Shown: piece after piece, positions 41,566 through 54,139 of the stretch
Layout of the letters: every line of letters starts with the position of its first letter
Numbering within the stretch: position 1 is the stretch's first letter
Virus record (IMG/VR): IMGVR_UViG_3300036834_000231
Span: 1 to 64,000 of that record
DNA from: a virus
Length of the DNA: 64,000 nucleotides
Reading direction: 5' to 3' (one strand)
Made by a program: the position numbers and the translations under genes
Notes under the pieces: model-generated
The model's input: only the letters and a program-made list of their open reading frames with translations
Databases searched by the model: none
Told to the model about the DNA's origin: nothing

Positions 41566-41711
41566 AAAGGAACCATCGGCTATTCTGAAGTTTCCGCCTA
41601 ACGCTGGCAGAAGCGCGGTTGCTCGAAGCCTCCTAGGAGCTTCACTAAAGGCAAACCCCGCTATAAGAGAGCGGGGCTGCCAATCCGGTGAGGCGGAAAG
41701 GAGTTCCGCCG

Positions 41712-41789
41712 ATGGAACACCTGGTGCTGTTGCTGCTCCTGCTGTTTAGGAGACGCCGGCTCAAGATACGGCTCGAAATCGAGTTGTAG
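41712..41789 (+). CDS. 25-aa peptide MEHLVLLLLLLFRRRRLKIRLEIEL, putative type I toxin (locus A)
   Basis: AGGAG in the loop of a GGCGGAA/TTCCGCC hairpin; flanking hairpins; antisense extended -10 TGATATCAT at ~41841-41849. Confidence 0.6.
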   Translation: MEHLVLLLLLLFRRRRLKIRLEIEL

Positions 41790-44556: not shown

Positions 44557-44585
44557 TTGCATTATTCAATCTAGTTTGATATCAT
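44557..44585 (+). promoter_or_regulatory. sigma70-type promoter for peptide locus B
   Basis: TTGCAT-17 bp-TATCAT with TG extension. Confidence 0.6.
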
Positions 44586-44715
44586 ACAAGTATGGCGGGA
44601 AGCGGTTGGAACGAAGGATGGGCAATCGGCAACGATGCACCTAGGGCGTCGAGTCGATTGGCCGGAGTTACGAGCTCCGGCCTTTCAATCCTACTCGCCG
44701 TAGGAGGTGATCTGT

Positions 44716-44787
44716 ATGCACCTCGTGCTGAAGGTGGTCTTGATTTTTGGGACCATAGTGCTGAAGTTGCGGTGGAAACGCCGTTAA
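44716..44787 (+). CDS. 23-aa peptide MHLVLKVVLIFGTIVLKLRWKRR, putative type I toxin (locus B)
   Basis: AGGAGGTG SD paired with upstream TCCTAC; 3' hairpin; antisense -10 TATACT at ~44832-44837. Confidence 0.65.
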   Translation: MHLVLKVVLIFGTIVLKLRWKRR

Positions 44788-44860
44788 TCCAGGCACAGGA
44801 GGCGGCGGCCCACCCGTCGCCTTCCTTCTTCAGTATACCGCCAATTCAAACTAGTTCGAT

Positions 44861-45067
44861 ATGACAGACTACAAGGCGAGTTGGGATCTAGCCTCAATCC
44901 CAGACCAGGAGTTTTTTTCGGAACTTGGCCGCCGCAATGCTGCGAAGCGGAGCAAGCCGCTGGGCGGCGCCCGGCCCGGGGCTGGCCGCAAGGCAACTAT
45001 GGCGCCGTGTCCGCGCTGCGGTCAATTGGTGACGGCCACGCAAGCGCGCCGCGGTCACGGTTGCTGA
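44861..45067 (+). CDS. small basic protein, GGARPGAGRK (AT-hook-like) plus zinc knuckle
   Basis: SELGRR..GGARPGAGRK..CPRCG..HGC. Confidence 0.6.
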   Translation: MTDYKASWDLASIPDQEFFSELGRRNAAKRSKPLGGARPGAGRKATMAPCPRCGQLVTATQARRGHGC

Positions 45068-45236: not shown

Positions 45237-45590
45237 TCATGCAGTTCTTTCGGGGCCGAACTCGAACGCATGGTGCTCCGAGCCGTCCGGGAAGATGACC
45301 ACGATCGGCGATAGACGAAACAAGCCATAGCCCGCGTAATCGCAAGGTTGGCGCTTGGCGCCCGTCGGGTTCTCGCCGAAGGCCTTCGGCGAGTCAGGCA
45401 GATAGCGGCTGAGGCATTCGCACGTGGCGCTGTCCGGGGTCGCGCCCTGATCTTTGAATTGCCGGAAGTCCTCGATCGAGGCGACGTGGCCGCAGACGGG
45501 GCATCCAAAACGCCAGCAGAAAATGTCAGGTCCGAAGCGCCGCGTGCCCTCGTCGAGCCACTCCTGATGGGTCATTCGAGCGGGCATATC
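45237..45590 (-). CDS. VVA0879-like conserved phage protein (start uncertain)
   Basis: W..EG..RFG.D...WRF.CP.CG.VAS..DF..EC..R..CDYAGYGLF. Confidence 0.65.
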   Translation of the reverse strand, partial: DMPARMTHQEWLDEGTRRFGPDIFCWRFGCPVCGHVASIEDFRQFKDQGATPDSATCECLSRYLPDSPKAFGENPTGAKRQPCDYAGYGLFRLSPIVVIFPDGSEHHAFEFGPERTA

Positions 45591-46465
45591 GCGCTGACCT
45601 CCTCGATGAAGCGGATCGCCCATTCGAGCGCAGATTGCTCAGACTTGTCAAAGTCGGGGTCGCCGCGGTGCGTGGCAATGCGATGAGTGAGCCAGTCACA
45701 CCGCCGGCGCAGCCGGTCGAGGCGGTCCAATTCCTTGGGCGTCAACGTGGTACGGATCGCGAGAGGTTTACTCACGATGACTTCTTCCGCAGGGAATTGC
45801 GAAAGGAAAATGGTATCACGGTAACCATCATGTTAAAGAGTCTCAGCTTTCTTAAGCTGCTGAGCAAGCTACGGTTTGTGCAACAGGCTCTCGCACTGCC
45901 GGGCCTCGGGCACTTTCTCTGCGATCTGTTCGCATAGCCCTTGCAGAAAACCGTGCAGCCACATGAGCTGCTCTTTGTCCTGCTCGCCGGCCACTTCATC
46001 TTGCAGGCCGTGCGCGAACTTGACGATCAAGTCGTTCATGATTCGAAGACCGGAGAGCCCGTCTAGAGCCCTCCGGCGCTCCGCATATTTGCGAAGTTTC
46101 TGAGAACTCCTCTCAGTCTACCCGAAAGCCCGGTGGCCCAGAGCAGTTGTCGCCTTGCGCTTTCATGGTCGGCGCTGCAGAATGGCGCGCTCCATGGGCG
46201 AGTGCTTGGCGCAGGCCCAGTACCTGGTCGTTCGAATGAGGAACGCGCAGGTTCCCGGCTGGCCGGGACGGCAAACCGCCGCCACGTGTTCTTCCGTCAC
46301 CGGCGCCGGGTCGTCGCGTTCGGGAATCAGCACCTGCCCATGATGCCATGGCAGTTGTCCACTTTTTTTCGGGATACTAGGGCCCTTGCCGCTCTGCTGC
46401 TTAGGAGACGACAGAGCAAGGAATTTTAAGCACAGGATGCGTCCTTATGCTACAGTCCCGATTGA

Positions 46466-46620
46466 CAGAAGGGAAAAGCCGGGAGTAAGGTCCCGGCTTC
46501 TCCGATACCACTTCCAGCTAAGGAGGTGATCGTACTTGGTCATCAGACTCAGACTGGCCCTATTTTTGGTAGGGTCGCTAAAATTCTACCTCTCCCTGCA
46601 AAGGGCGCGGTAGCGACCTC
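46466..46620 (-). ncRNA. putative antisense antitoxin RNA of locus C
   Basis: Minus-strand -10 TAAACT (~46621-46626) and terminator GCCGGGA/TCCCGGC+TTTT, conserved in locus D. Confidence 0.5.
46536..46613 (+). CDS. 25-aa peptide MVIRLRLALFLVGSLKFYLSLQRAR, putative type I toxin (locus C)
   Basis: AAGGAGGTGA SD with TTG start; mostly synonymous divergence from locus D. Confidence 0.75.
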   Translation: MVIRLRLALFLVGSLKFYLSLQRAR

Positions 46621-46653
46621 AGTTTACGACAGCAGCAAGCGCGCGAGAAAGCC

Positions 46654-46872
46654 ATGAAACGCCACGATCTGCCAGCCGAGTATTTCCCGTTCACGATCGA
46701 AGCCATCAACCCGGCGACCGGCCAGGTGGTTTGGTTCCGGCGCGTGGACAAACCGGATGGAGTTCTTAAGCTCGAGATTCCGCCGCTCGCGCGCCAGCTC
46801 GGGCATCCGGTTTCGATCCGCTTGGTCTTTGCTGACGGCTCAGTCGAAGAAGGCGGCGAGCTCTTAACATAG
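46654..46872 (+). CDS. hypothetical protein
   Basis: Protein-like ORF between loci C and D. Confidence 0.5.
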   Translation: MKRHDLPAEYFPFTIEAINPATGQVVWFRRVDKPDGVLKLEIPPLARQLGHPVSIRLVFADGSVEEGGELLT

Positions 46873-47042
46873 GCCCAAGTCTTGCCACGGCAGTTGTCCG
46901 CCTTCCCCGGACGACTGGTTTCGCATTCTGGGAACTGCTAGTGCTGCTAGCTCTTCGAGCATAGCAAGCGTTTACAATGGAAATTCCTAGGCCGAAAGGT
47001 TGGAGAGGCGAGCGTTCTTTTGTCGGCTATTCAGTTCGGCCG

Positions 47043-47232
47043 AGAAGGGAAAAGCCGGGATAGCGTCCCGGCTCTCCAATACCACTTCCGGTTAGGGAGG
47101 TGATCGTTTTGATCATCCGAATACGGCTGGCCCTATTCCTAATAGGGTCACTGGAGTTCTATCTCTCCCTGCGAAGGGCTAGATAAATTCCGGTTGGGTC
47201 GTCAGCCTCGCACGCTGGCGGCCCACCGTATT
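47043..47232 (-). ncRNA. putative antisense antitoxin RNA of locus D
   Basis: Minus-strand TAAACT (~47235-47240), internal hairpin ~47196-47225, terminator 47050-47072. Confidence 0.5.
47109..47186 (+). CDS. 25-aa peptide MIIRIRLALFLIGSLEFYLSLRRAR, putative type I toxin (locus D)
   Basis: GGGAGGTGA SD with TTG start; paralog of locus C with conserved length and stop position. Confidence 0.75.
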   Translation: MIIRIRLALFLIGSLEFYLSLRRAR

Positions 47233-47256
47233 CAGTTTACGACAACAGCAGGCCGC

Positions 47257-47793
47257 TCATTTCCGTTCGCGCAGCTCGCGCCAAACCTCGGCCAGGCTGA
47301 TCGTGGCGCCGTTCGTCAGCTTAAACTCCTCCAAGCGATCGAGTTGTCGACGCTCGCGGTTCCAAATCCAGGCGCTCTCGGCTTGCGGGTCGGCGAGGTA
47401 CACCTGCTCGATGCCGATACGGACGTACTCTTCGCACTTGGCCAGGACTCGCGTCATGGCGTCGTCCGGAGACAGAATCTCGATCACTATCTCGATCTGA
47501 CCGGGCTCGGTCGGGTAAGGCGTCGGGATGCTCTGCCGGCCGGCGGCGACATCCGGCCGCGGTGCGAACTCGGGATCCAGCCGCAGATCCAATTCCGTCG
47601 CCGCCTTGTAGCCCGCTCGCCTAAGTGCCTCGCTCAAAATCACTTGCAGTAGGGAATGCAGCCAGGTGGCCATGCTTTTTTCGACCAGCGCGCCGTGCCA
47701 GAATTCGTACGGTCGCTCGCTCGATTGATAGAGCAGCGCAAACTCTTGAAAAGTGAGCGGTCCGGCTACGGCGGCCATGTCTTCAGCCATCAT
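47257..47793 (-). CDS. Uma2/DUF820 family endonuclease
   Basis: EFWHG..H..LQ..RPDV..IVIEILSPDD..K..Y..G..V..DP. Confidence 0.88.
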   Translation of the reverse strand: MMAEDMAAVAGPLTFQEFALLYQSSERPYEFWHGALVEKSMATWLHSLLQVILSEALRRAGYKAATELDLRLDPEFAPRPDVAAGRQSIPTPYPTEPGQIEIVIEILSPDDAMTRVLAKCEEYVRIGIEQVYLADPQAESAWIWNRERRQLDRLEEFKLTNGATISLAEVWRELRERK

Positions 47794-47855
47794 GCCACGG
47801 CAGGTAAACCACTACTTCTTTGAGTCTCGGTTCGGTCGAGCCACCGAGCAGTCTC

Positions 47856-48416
47856 CTACAAGTTCACGCCCGCGAAAATCTCAGGGAGGGCAACTTCGAA
47901 CGGCCATTCCATGCGGCCCGCCCGAATGATTTCCGGGGTCGGATCTTCGGGCCTGTAAACCAGTACAACCTGTTTGGTTAGTTCGACCTCTACGACTGCC
48001 CCGGCTCCTGCTTCGAGGTACAAGCCCACTTTCTGCAAACGTTTCGCCCGGCGCTCCGAGGGCGAAATCACCTCGACCACAAAGAGCGGCTTTCCCTCGA
48101 ACCAGCGGCCGCCACGCAGCGAATCCTCGTAATCGCCGGCTGAGAGCACCATCAAGTCCGGACCAGGCACGTTGTCGCGGCCGGTCGGCGATTGGAAATG
48201 CCAGCCGGCTTCCCGGACCACCCGGTGAAGCAGGAACTGCTTCTCTAACAACCGCTCCAGATTCTTGACCACGACCACATGGGGCGTCATCGGAAAGGGC
48301 GCCAAGACCTGCTCTCCTTCAATCAGCTCATCTCGGTACCAAATCCCGTCGATGACTCGCTCGTCGAGCTTCGCGTATTCTGCCGCGGTCCAGAGCGCAT
48401 CCGCTTTCGCAGCCAT
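47856..48416 (-). CDS. Uma2/DUF820 family endonuclease
   Basis: ELIEG..P..H..PDLMV..P.FVVEVISPS..K..YL.AG. Confidence 0.88.
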   Translation of the reverse strand: MAAKADALWTAAEYAKLDERVIDGIWYRDELIEGEQVLAPFPMTPHVVVVKNLERLLEKQFLLHRVVREAGWHFQSPTGRDNVPGPDLMVLSAGDYEDSLRGGRWFEGKPLFVVEVISPSERRAKRLQKVGLYLEAGAGAVVEVELTKQVVLVYRPEDPTPEIIRAGRMEWPFEVALPEIFAGVNL

Positions 48417-48792
48417 GCAGCCATGATGCCACGGCCCGCCGCGCCCATTTGCCACAACCCCGCGCTTTTTCCCCCCAACTTCAGCACTTTTCCCTCCGAC
48501 TTGGCCACTTTTCCTTCAACTTTCCTCCCTTTTTGCCCTTTTCCCGCCCCTTTTCTTATCCTGCTGCAAAACTAGCATGCGCCTTCTTATCAACACCTTA
48601 CCAACCGCCCCCCGCTGCTGGGTGCGTGGGGATCGGCGCCCCCGCGCCTCTGCGTTTTTTTTCAACGATTTTCCCGGCTGCGCGCCAATCCCAACGGCAT
48701 TCGAGCTTGGTGCCCATTTTGCAGCTAAGTCCATTGTAATGTTGGGGTTGATTGACAGCATACACAATTGTATGGCACAATAGTGAATGTAG

Positions 48793-49071
48793 ATGCGCTT
48801 CACCTGGGACGCCGAAAAGAATCGAAGGAACATACTAAAACACGATGTTTCTTTCGAGGTGGCGGCAGAGGTGTTCGGCGACCCACAACACCTCGTTTCG
48901 CAGAACTACCTCATCGACGGCGAACAGCGCGAGCAAGTCATCGGGATGACTGAAGGCTTGGTCTTGCTGCTGGTCGTGTTCGTGGAGCACACCAGCGAGG
49001 GCGAGGACGTGATCCACATAATCTCAGCGAGGAAGGCCAACAAATACGAGGAAGGACTTTATGCCGAGTAA
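48793..49071 (+). CDS. brnT: BrnT toxin
   Basis: FTWD..KN..N..KH.VSFE.A..VF.DP..E.R..IG..IISARKA. Confidence 0.93.
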   Translation: MRFTWDAEKNRRNILKHDVSFEVAAEVFGDPQHLVSQNYLIDGEQREQVIGMTEGLVLLLVVFVEHTSEGEDVIHIISARKANKYEEGLYAE

Positions 49072-49330
49072 GATTTCAGACAAGACCCGTAAGCTGTACG
49101 AAGAGCGCGACAAGGCAATGGACAACGATCCAGATGCGCCGGTGCTGGCGCCCGAGATGTGGGCGAATGGCGTGAGGGGCAAGTACTACAAAGTAAGGAA
49201 ACAACCCGTTACCGTGCGTGTGGACATGGACGTATTGGAATGGCTCAAGTCACAGGGTGAAGGCCACCTGACGAAGATCAACCAGATCCTGCGCGAGCGG
49301 ATGCTGGCTGATCTGAAACGCGCCTCGTAG
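49061..49330 (+). CDS. brnA: BrnA antitoxin
   Basis: KQPVT.RVD.DVLEWLKSQG.G..T.INQILR. Confidence 0.92.
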   Translation: MPSKISDKTRKLYEERDKAMDNDPDAPVLAPEMWANGVRGKYYKVRKQPVTVRVDMDVLEWLKSQGEGHLTKINQILRERMLADLKRAS

Positions 49331-53563: not shown

Positions 53564-53792
53564 GCGTGTGTTCCTCCCGAGTCCAGGGCCCATAGTTCCT
53601 TCGGCCACCATTCGATTCTGTTTCGCGCGTTGCGCCACAGGCGCAGGTATCCACGTACGTCACATTGCCGTGGGCGCATTGCCGCGCTGGATTGTGCGAG
53701 CACTCCGCCGGCGTTACACAGTGCAGCCATGCCCGCACTGTGCTCTTAGCCTGTACAGCCTTATGCGTGTGCGGGCGCCGTCTCGGTGTCAT
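53556..53792 (-). CDS. small His/Cys-rich phage protein
   Basis: AHGNVTYVDTCACGATRETESNG..YGPW. Confidence 0.55.
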   Translation of the reverse strand: MTPRRRPHTHKAVQAKSTVRAWLHCVTPAECSHNPARQCAHGNVTYVDTCACGATRETESNGGRRNYGPWTREEHTHE

Positions 53793-54139
53793 AGAATCAC
53801 CGCTGCTAACGCCATGCAATGGACTTGCTCCAAGCGATCCTTAACGAACTGTTCGATCCAGCGCTTGCCTGCATCGAATGTCGTAAACTCACGGGGTCCG
53901 GGCGCATCGGCAATCTGCCGCAACTGCCATGACAACGAGGCTTCATAGCGCGTTCCACGAAAACCGTAGGCGGCCTTGACTTGACCCAATGGAAACGGGT
54001 TTCCCGTGTTACCCGCTACAGGCAGATAGACAAGCGAGACCCAATAGGGTTCGCCCTTGACGTCTGTATGAATGGTGTTCCAGTAAACCCGAGCTTCGAT
54101 AAACTCTCGACTCAGTGGTGACAGTGTGGTTTCCGACAT
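53789..54139 (-). CDS. hypothetical early-region protein
   Basis: Tight operon spacing. Confidence 0.5.
   Translation of the reverse strand: MSETTLSPLSREFIEARVYWNTIHTDVKGEPYWVSLVYLPVAGNTGNPFPLGQVKAAYGFRGTRYEASLSWQLRQIADAPGPREFTTFDAGKRWIEQFVKDRLEQVHCMALAAVIL

Follow-up and report, generated by a model that had tools for sequence, protein, structure and literature searches.

Two paralogous loci on viral DNA from soil, which we call C and D, each carry a TTG-started ORF of 25 codons; these ORFs are real, selected genes, and the structure of the RNA that encodes them is under selection in addition to the ORF itself. The window, 64,000 nucleotides long, starts at position 1 of a virus record of 96,282 bp that comes from a soil metagenome. 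We tentatively read C and D as a new type I TA-like family, in which a cis-antisense RNA would lie opposite each peptide gene, and put the probability of this reading at about 0.45; close behind it comes the possibility that C and D are small-protein genes without an antisense partner, their translation being gated by the mRNA's own structure. Judged from two sequences on one metagenomic contig, the family appears to be new and its peptide unusual.

An earlier note on this DNA had described two copies of a unit of 300-370 nt. The two paralogous blocks are real, with all of the elements that the note listed in place, and C and D match each other within the genome at E=4e-31, so the repeat is not a product of chance. 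The unit size did not hold up, as continuous conservation extends over only 175 nt in C and 212 nt in D. Each block consists of a GC hairpin (H1), a hairpin that pairs an anti-SD with the SD (H2), a 10-nt SD, GGAGGTGATC, the 25-codon ORF with its TTG start, and, downstream of this ORF, a 22-nt box that is conserved. D alone has an extra hairpin of 40 nt (about 47191-47229), which separates its stop codon from the 3' box. The parts of the two units are the following:

46466-46640 (+): conserved block of unit C (leader, ORF, and 3' box), from the alignment to D; plus-strand fold z=-4.95
47042-47253 (+): conserved block of unit D, from the alignment to C; plus-strand fold z=-7.72
46448-46456 (+): candidate extended -10 of the sense mRNA of C, TGCTACAGT, 9 nt before the conserved block, read from the sequence only
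47025-47033 (+): GGCTATTCA, putative counterpart in D, by position, of the candidate -10 TGCTACAGT; 8 nt separate it from the conserved block
46472-46503 (unstranded): hairpin H1 of C, with its core GCCGGGA/TCCCGGC at 46478-46497; C and D have the same stems but different loops
47054-47072: core stem of the GC hairpin H1 of D
46509-46531 (+): anti-SD/SD hairpin H2 (CACTTCC / GGAGGTG) and SD GGAGGTGATC of C, -9.9 kcal/mol
47083-47105 (+): anti-SD/SD hairpin H2 and SD GGAGGTGATC of D, -10.8 kcal/mol
46536-46613 (+): peptide gene C, 25 codons with TTG as start and TAG as stop
47109-47186 (+): peptide gene D, 25 codons with TTG as start and TAA as stop
about 46555-46577 and 46586-46613: hairpins H3 and H4 inside ORF C, H4 with a GNRA loop
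46619-46640 (unstranded): the conserved 22-nt 3' box of C; its minus-strand TAAACT is at 46626-46621
47232-47253 (unstranded): the conserved 22-nt 3' box of D; its minus-strand TAAACT is at 47239-47234

The two words previously proposed as -10 elements, TGCTACAGT and TACAAT, are both present, the latter on the D side at 46973-46978, but they do not occupy equivalent positions, since the counterpart of TGCTACAGT in D is GGCTATTCA. This counterpart also precedes a module of a second peptide family (family A, see below), at 41578. A sigma-70 consensus scan of both strands returned no promoter and did not pick up TGCTACAGT.

The ORFs of C and D differ at 20 of 78 nt, with 8, 1, and 11 differences at the first, second, and third codon positions, and these amount to five residue changes (V/I, L/I, V/I, K/E, and Q/R). 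Random placement of the same changes leads to an expectation of 10.7 +/- 1.6 residue changes (P=0.0008) and creates a premature stop in 40% of placements; in C and D the stop is found at the same codon. The synonymous codon pairs that had been cited as a sign of coding selection are all correct, two more can be added to them (CTA/CTG and GCG/GCT), and the bias of the differences bears out the claim that the 25-codon ORF is under such selection. In each of the other five frames, 9-13 of the 14-15 changed codons are non-synonymous, and a 43-aa overlapping frame and the minus-strand frames, in which the differences are mostly non-synonymous, were rejected as genes. Every comparative test on C and D, here and below, rests on a single pair, because only two sequences exist.

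Upstream of the ORF, GGAGG is located 9 nt (C) or 8 nt (D) before the TTG, and the word GGAGGTGA is found at 46522 in C and at 47096 in D. The sole indel near the start, a single nucleotide, falls exactly between the SD and the TTG and thereby puts an upstream GTG out of frame in C; this GTG, which lies inside the SD (47100 in D), was rejected as a start codon. The full SD word, GGAGGTGATC, is a 10-nt complement of the 3' end of 16S rRNA. It occurs only three times in the 96 kb, at peptide loci C and D and at a further peptide locus, B.

Both blocks fold more weakly on the minus strand (z=-3.58 for C and -4.94 for D) than on the plus strand, where H1 (GC-rich), H2, H3, and H4 (inside the ORF, with a GNRA loop) are common to the two. 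In the consensus fold of the two sequences, differences affect 6 of 86 paired columns and 27 of 86 unpaired columns (Fisher P=7e-5), a contrast that is inflated by the derivation of the fold from these same two sequences. All five of the changed pairs stay paired, and one of them, in the outer stem of H4, is changed on both sides, from C-G to U-A, by two silent third-position changes. Stems are kept while loops vary, with the exception of the GNRA tetraloops (GCAA/GCGA), which are conserved. The leader has nine differences in 66 columns, compared to a divergence of 42% at silent sites (P=5e-7). Within it, the unusually long SD is predicted to be locked in H2, with pairing probabilities of 0.98-1.0 in C and 0.87-0.99 in D (0.87-1.0 across C, D, and B). 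The SD pairing, the H2 energies, and the z-scores describe a structured mRNA with an occluded ribosome-binding site, as is found in the type I class.

Very strong folding, with stems kept, loops variable, and GNRA tetraloops conserved, could also belong to non-coding structured RNAs (phage sRNAs) in which the 25-codon frame is incidental, and some of the silent changes are pair-preserving as well. We nevertheless consider such RNAs very unlikely, given the codon bias of the differences (8/1/11, with only five residue changes; P=0.0008), a frame that is open and stops at the same codon in both copies, and a perfect 10-nt SD at the right distance from the start, with the indel confined to the spacer between them. 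Nor was any Rfam family found at E<=10, bar a chance miRNA match.

The 3' box is identical between C and D at 20 of 22 nt, against 42% silent (third-position) divergence (P=0.0008), which points to purifying selection; both units have kept it, even though it lies 40 nt farther from the stop codon in D. Read on the minus strand, the box contains TAAACT, a candidate -10 for an antisense RNA, with neither a conserved -35 nor a TGn extension. At the opposite end of the unit, H1 is more stable on the minus strand than on the plus strand (-24.6 vs -22.2 kcal/mol in C; -20.1 vs -19.1 kcal/mol in D). The minus strand of C reads as a stem of 13 bp followed by UUUUCCC, that is, a four-U tail; UUUUCCC likewise follows the minus-strand H1 in D, and conservation ends just past H1. 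The tail and the stability of the hairpin agree with its previous description as a minus-strand terminator, but a consensus scan, under its five-T rule, found no terminator on this strand. Equivalent places in other modules hold comparable words, namely TATACT in locus B and TGNTATCAT-like boxes, TATCAT, in the three family A modules, two of which have TGN before the box. Taken together, a cis-antisense RNA opposite the ORF is plausible: the conserved TAAACT and the U tail of H1 fit the antisense layout that had been claimed, while the lack of a -35, the negative scan, and an alternative pairing on the sense strand weigh on the other side. The 3' box was also considered as a sigma-54 promoter or a plus-strand promoter, both of which were rejected, as the spacing does not fit.

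Under the type I TA-like reading, C and D are two diverged copies of a small autonomous module on a phage-plasmid, each with a strongly folded sense RNA whose 25-residue product is basic and hydrophobic. A cis-antisense RNA of ~145 nt (C) or ~185 nt (D) would start at the TAAACT box just after the ORF and end at H1 with the minus-strand UUUU tail. Its reach would include the SD and the start codon as well as the ORF, much as Sib RNAs cover ibs. The peptide, when made, would harm the envelope or another essential target, and the module could serve plasmid maintenance or phage exclusion, like the neighboring BrnT/BrnA. Indirect hints that the peptide may be toxic are the locked SD, the weak TTG start, the TA neighbors, and a decayed copy in family A.

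The coding and structure evidence speaks identically for small-protein genes that have no antisense partner. The product could then be an accessory micropeptide that, for instance, modulates a membrane or envelope protein of the host or serves in exclusion or lysis timing, and the SD hairpin and a 3' box folded back on the start region would be opened by processing, temperature, or a trans factor. The consensus fold does pair the 3' box (YCAG..ACGA) with the SD-start spacer and start codon (UCGU..UUGR), and H2, H3, H4, and the additional hairpin in D all fold better on the plus strand. Also consistent with this possibility are the consensus scan, with neither a minus-strand promoter nor a minus-strand terminator, and a peptide without a hydrophobic run of transmembrane length. 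However, the fold-back helix (4+4 bp) is found in the minimum-energy fold of C and is absent from that of D, and it uses only 8 of the 22 conserved nucleotides of the box. Further points in favor of an antisense RNA are the -10-like words on the opposite strand, which occur at the same position in six modules of two unrelated peptide families, and H1 with its U tail, which reads better on the minus strand in both C and D. H1 may instead be a sense-strand 5' stem-loop, because the H1 of locus B has no minus-strand U tail. In D and B the 3' box also follows a strong plus-strand hairpin and could be part of a weak sense terminator.

The 25-residue peptide has a net charge of +5 in C and +4 in D, a GRAVY of 0.88-0.90, and an Arg-rich C-terminus. 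Its longest uncharged run is 9 residues, and position 16, amid the hydrophobic part, is the site of the Lys/Glu swap. Over residues 2-22, strongly hydrophobic residues are found at nine of the ten odd positions, the exception being Gly13 (post hoc P=0.006), and the helical hydrophobic moment is below that of most shuffles. Owing to the short uncharged run, the charge at position 16, the low helical moment, and the two-residue hydrophobic period, a single transmembrane helix is doubtful. A beta-hairpin, as suggested in the earlier note, is a possible but weakly supported fold; the alternating hydrophobicity and the low helical moment favor it, but the beta moment, although higher, does not beat shuffles (P=0.08-0.2). 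We think it unlikely that C and D, along with B, are members of a type I TA family whose toxin is a 25-residue cationic amphipathic beta-hairpin, with two strands of alternately hydrophobic residues around Val/Ile-Gly-Ser, borne by a soil phage-plasmid without close relatives in the collections searched. Such a peptide might oligomerize in or on the membrane, or act by adding a strand to a target protein.

The membrane type I toxins that have been reviewed are hydrophobic and shorter than 60 aa, each with an alpha-helical transmembrane domain; features known among them are small size, a cationic C-terminus, sequestration of the RBS, and tandem duplication (PMC8309996). Compared to this profile (PMC8309996), the size, GRAVY, and Arg-rich C-terminus of the C/D peptide fit, but the uncharged run is only 9 residues long and position 16 is charged. 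Type I toxins have been reported only from Proteobacteria and Firmicutes, in families that are narrowly distributed (PMC8309996, PMC5367252).

Among known systems, the layout of C and D is closest to that of ibs/Sib of E. coli (PMC2943612), the likeness drawn previously, but this does not extend to sequence similarity or to an Rfam Sib match. Both have a tiny ORF (18-19 aa in ibs, 25 aa in C and D) in short repeated paralogous units. The antitoxin RNA of ibs/Sib, about 140 nt long, is encoded on the opposite strand and covers the whole ORF; the antisense RNA proposed for C and D, about 140-185 nt in length, would also cover the ribosome-binding site. Ibs is uniformly hydrophobic, whereas the C/D peptide has a net charge of +4 to +5 and a charge inside its hydrophobic part. 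The ibs/Sib loci are found on an enterobacterial chromosome, in contrast to C and D, which are located on a soil phage-plasmid, where the antisense RNA is putative.

The hok/sok system of R1 and AapA1/IsoA1 of Helicobacter pylori (PMC5416894, PMC6733600) resemble the proposed C/D module in having an mRNA that is kept inert by folding, with sequestration of the SD and long-range pairing of the 3' end, and the plasmid-maintenance setting of hok/sok is like that of the C/D carrier. However, Hok is about 50 aa long and needs the overlapping mok frame, and AapA1 is a helical peptide of 30 aa, compared to 25 aa in C and D; the antisense RNAs of these two systems cover only the 5' part of the message. 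Unlike in hok and AapA1, the long-range pairing in C and D is short (4+4 bp) and is robustly predicted only for C. The zorO/OrzO system, from the class described as "tandemly duplicated small hydrophobic ORF" (PMC8309996), shares with C and D its tandem duplication, its size (25-29 aa), and an RBS within a 5' UTR structure. It differs in that OrzO, which is divergently encoded, finds its pairing site in the 5' UTR, ZorO has a predicted transmembrane helix, and there is no homology to C and D.

The peptide matches no family in Pfam, NCBIfam, or PHROGs at E<=10, neither Ibs, Hok/Gef, Ldr, Fst, TisB, or ShoB nor any other catalogued toxin family, and has no sequence match in the PDB. A search of positions 45500-48000, both strands, with the Rfam covariance models (cmscan, E<=10) returned no Sib, Sok, RatA, SR4, IstR, or IsoA; the sole hit was a chance match of mir-483 to H1, at 21.5 bits compared to a gathering score of 60. 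The suggestion of an undescribed family is in keeping with these results, there being no catalogued family in Pfam, NCBIfam, PHROGs, Rfam, or the PDB. A tblastn check, proposed along with that suggestion, was run against phages and plasmids and gave no relative; in these same collections, blastn and tblastn produced chance matches of <40 nt or nothing. The leader DNA word had no match in viral contigs, scans with peptide patterns of viral, metagenome, and genome collections were empty, and a codon-degenerate pattern of 15 residues was likewise empty in the metagenome and genome collections. An nhmmer profile of C and D, run over the whole 96-kb genome, found C and D only, without detecting locus B.

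Locus B (window 44557-44862) contains a 23-codon ORF at 44716-44787 with an ATG start. It has in common with C and D the SD word GGAGGTGATC and the succession of a GC hairpin and an anti-SD hairpin, and its peptide of 23 aa resembles theirs in being basic close to the N-terminus, in having Gly-Thr at its center, and in ending with an Arg/Lys tail. B and D share GGCGGCCCACC, a word of 11 nt within the 3' hairpin. After the hairpin, B reads TCAGTATAC and C and D read TCAGTTTAC, with the word TCAGTWTAC common to both. The candidate sense promoter of B (TTGCAT-17-TATCAT) is better than those of C and D, and a terminator-like hairpin on the plus strand (44804-44821) has TATACT on the opposite strand just after it. 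As these features are shared but the nhmmer profile misses the locus, we regard B as probably a distant sister of C and D.

Family A, a second family of peptide modules, is found at 41712-41789 (plus strand) of the window and at G000:C1 93109-93189 and 93370-93399 (both minus strand). Its peptide, a hydrophobic run followed by RRRR and then LKI.(L/I)EI, is different from that of C and D but follows the same plan. In every family A copy the SD is part of a hairpin, and a GC hairpin reads as a terminator on the opposite strand. The third copy is decayed, with a 1-nt deletion that results in a 9-codon ORF and with the 3' half of the ORF deleted; it keeps the leader and the TATCAT box on the opposite strand. 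The soil phage-plasmid carries at least six small peptide modules, in two families built on one plan. Should this plan be confirmed, an unexplored mobile element would join the known carriers of antisense-guarded peptide modules, possibly with a peptide that folds differently. If the TA reading is set aside, C and D still provide a clear example of a 25-codon gene subject to overlapping constraints from coding and from RNA structure, and genes of this kind are missed by gene callers.

The replicon encodes RepA, ParA, DnaB, one or more tail genes, and DNA methylases, a gene content that supports its assignment as a phage-plasmid. RepA and DnaB match plasmids from many phyla at ~40% identity; relatives of RepA, of orf72 (below), and of a 128-aa ORF were sought in viral contigs, with none found there. 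C and D adjoin two Uma2 nuclease genes and a BrnT/BrnA pair in an accessory stretch. These flanking genes, the tandem Uma2-family nuclease genes at 47257-48455 (minus strand) and the BrnT/BrnA type II TA pair at 48793-49330 (plus strand), mark an accessory or defense island of the phage-plasmid. Of three soil DNA runs, all in the form of contigs, one is the probable source of this DNA and the other two contain identical fragments; the sole usable variants are two changes in the H1 loop in one low-depth contig.

One further gene lies between the two units:

46654-46872 (+): orf72, an orphan 72-codon gene from the ORF list, outside the repeat

It begins 41 nt after unit C, on the same strand and with no terminator between them, and may be co-transcribed with C. 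With this arrangement, the 25-codon ORF could be a leader peptide or upstream ORF with control over the gene that follows it, but unit D has no plus-strand gene downstream, running into the 3' end of a convergent Uma2 gene, and orf72 is not part of the repeat; of all the explanations weighed here, we give this one the least credence. The product of orf72 looks protein-like; in a set of 5.8 billion proteins its sole match is itself, and it has no family in Pfam or PHROG.

Upstream of each unit is a second repeated element, a 22-nt box:

46344-46365 (unstranded): box copy 1, with the palindrome TGCCATGGCA, repeat family D5
46883-46904 (unstranded): box copy 2, TGCCACGGCA, also the 5' arm of a hairpin just after orf72

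The boxes are separated from the conserved blocks of C and D by 106-142 unconserved nucleotides. The palindrome TGCCAYGGCA is found in three copies within 1.5 kb (46344-46353, 46883-46892, and 47793-47802) and nowhere else in the 96 kb. Because two of the three copies abut minus-strand start codons, that of an Uma2 gene at 47793 and an ATG at 46349, the box was rejected as part of the peptide unit and probably belongs to the starts of the neighboring minus-strand genes; its form suggests an operator, or else a different kind of DNA-level site, for a dimeric regulator. Near-copies of the upstream box (13/13 nt, 1 mismatch) and of the core of the 3' box (GAGTTTACGACA), 32 nt apart, are found at 53879-53934 on the minus strand, inside a 116-codon ORF (53789-54139, minus strand), and may reflect either chance or a trace of common origin.
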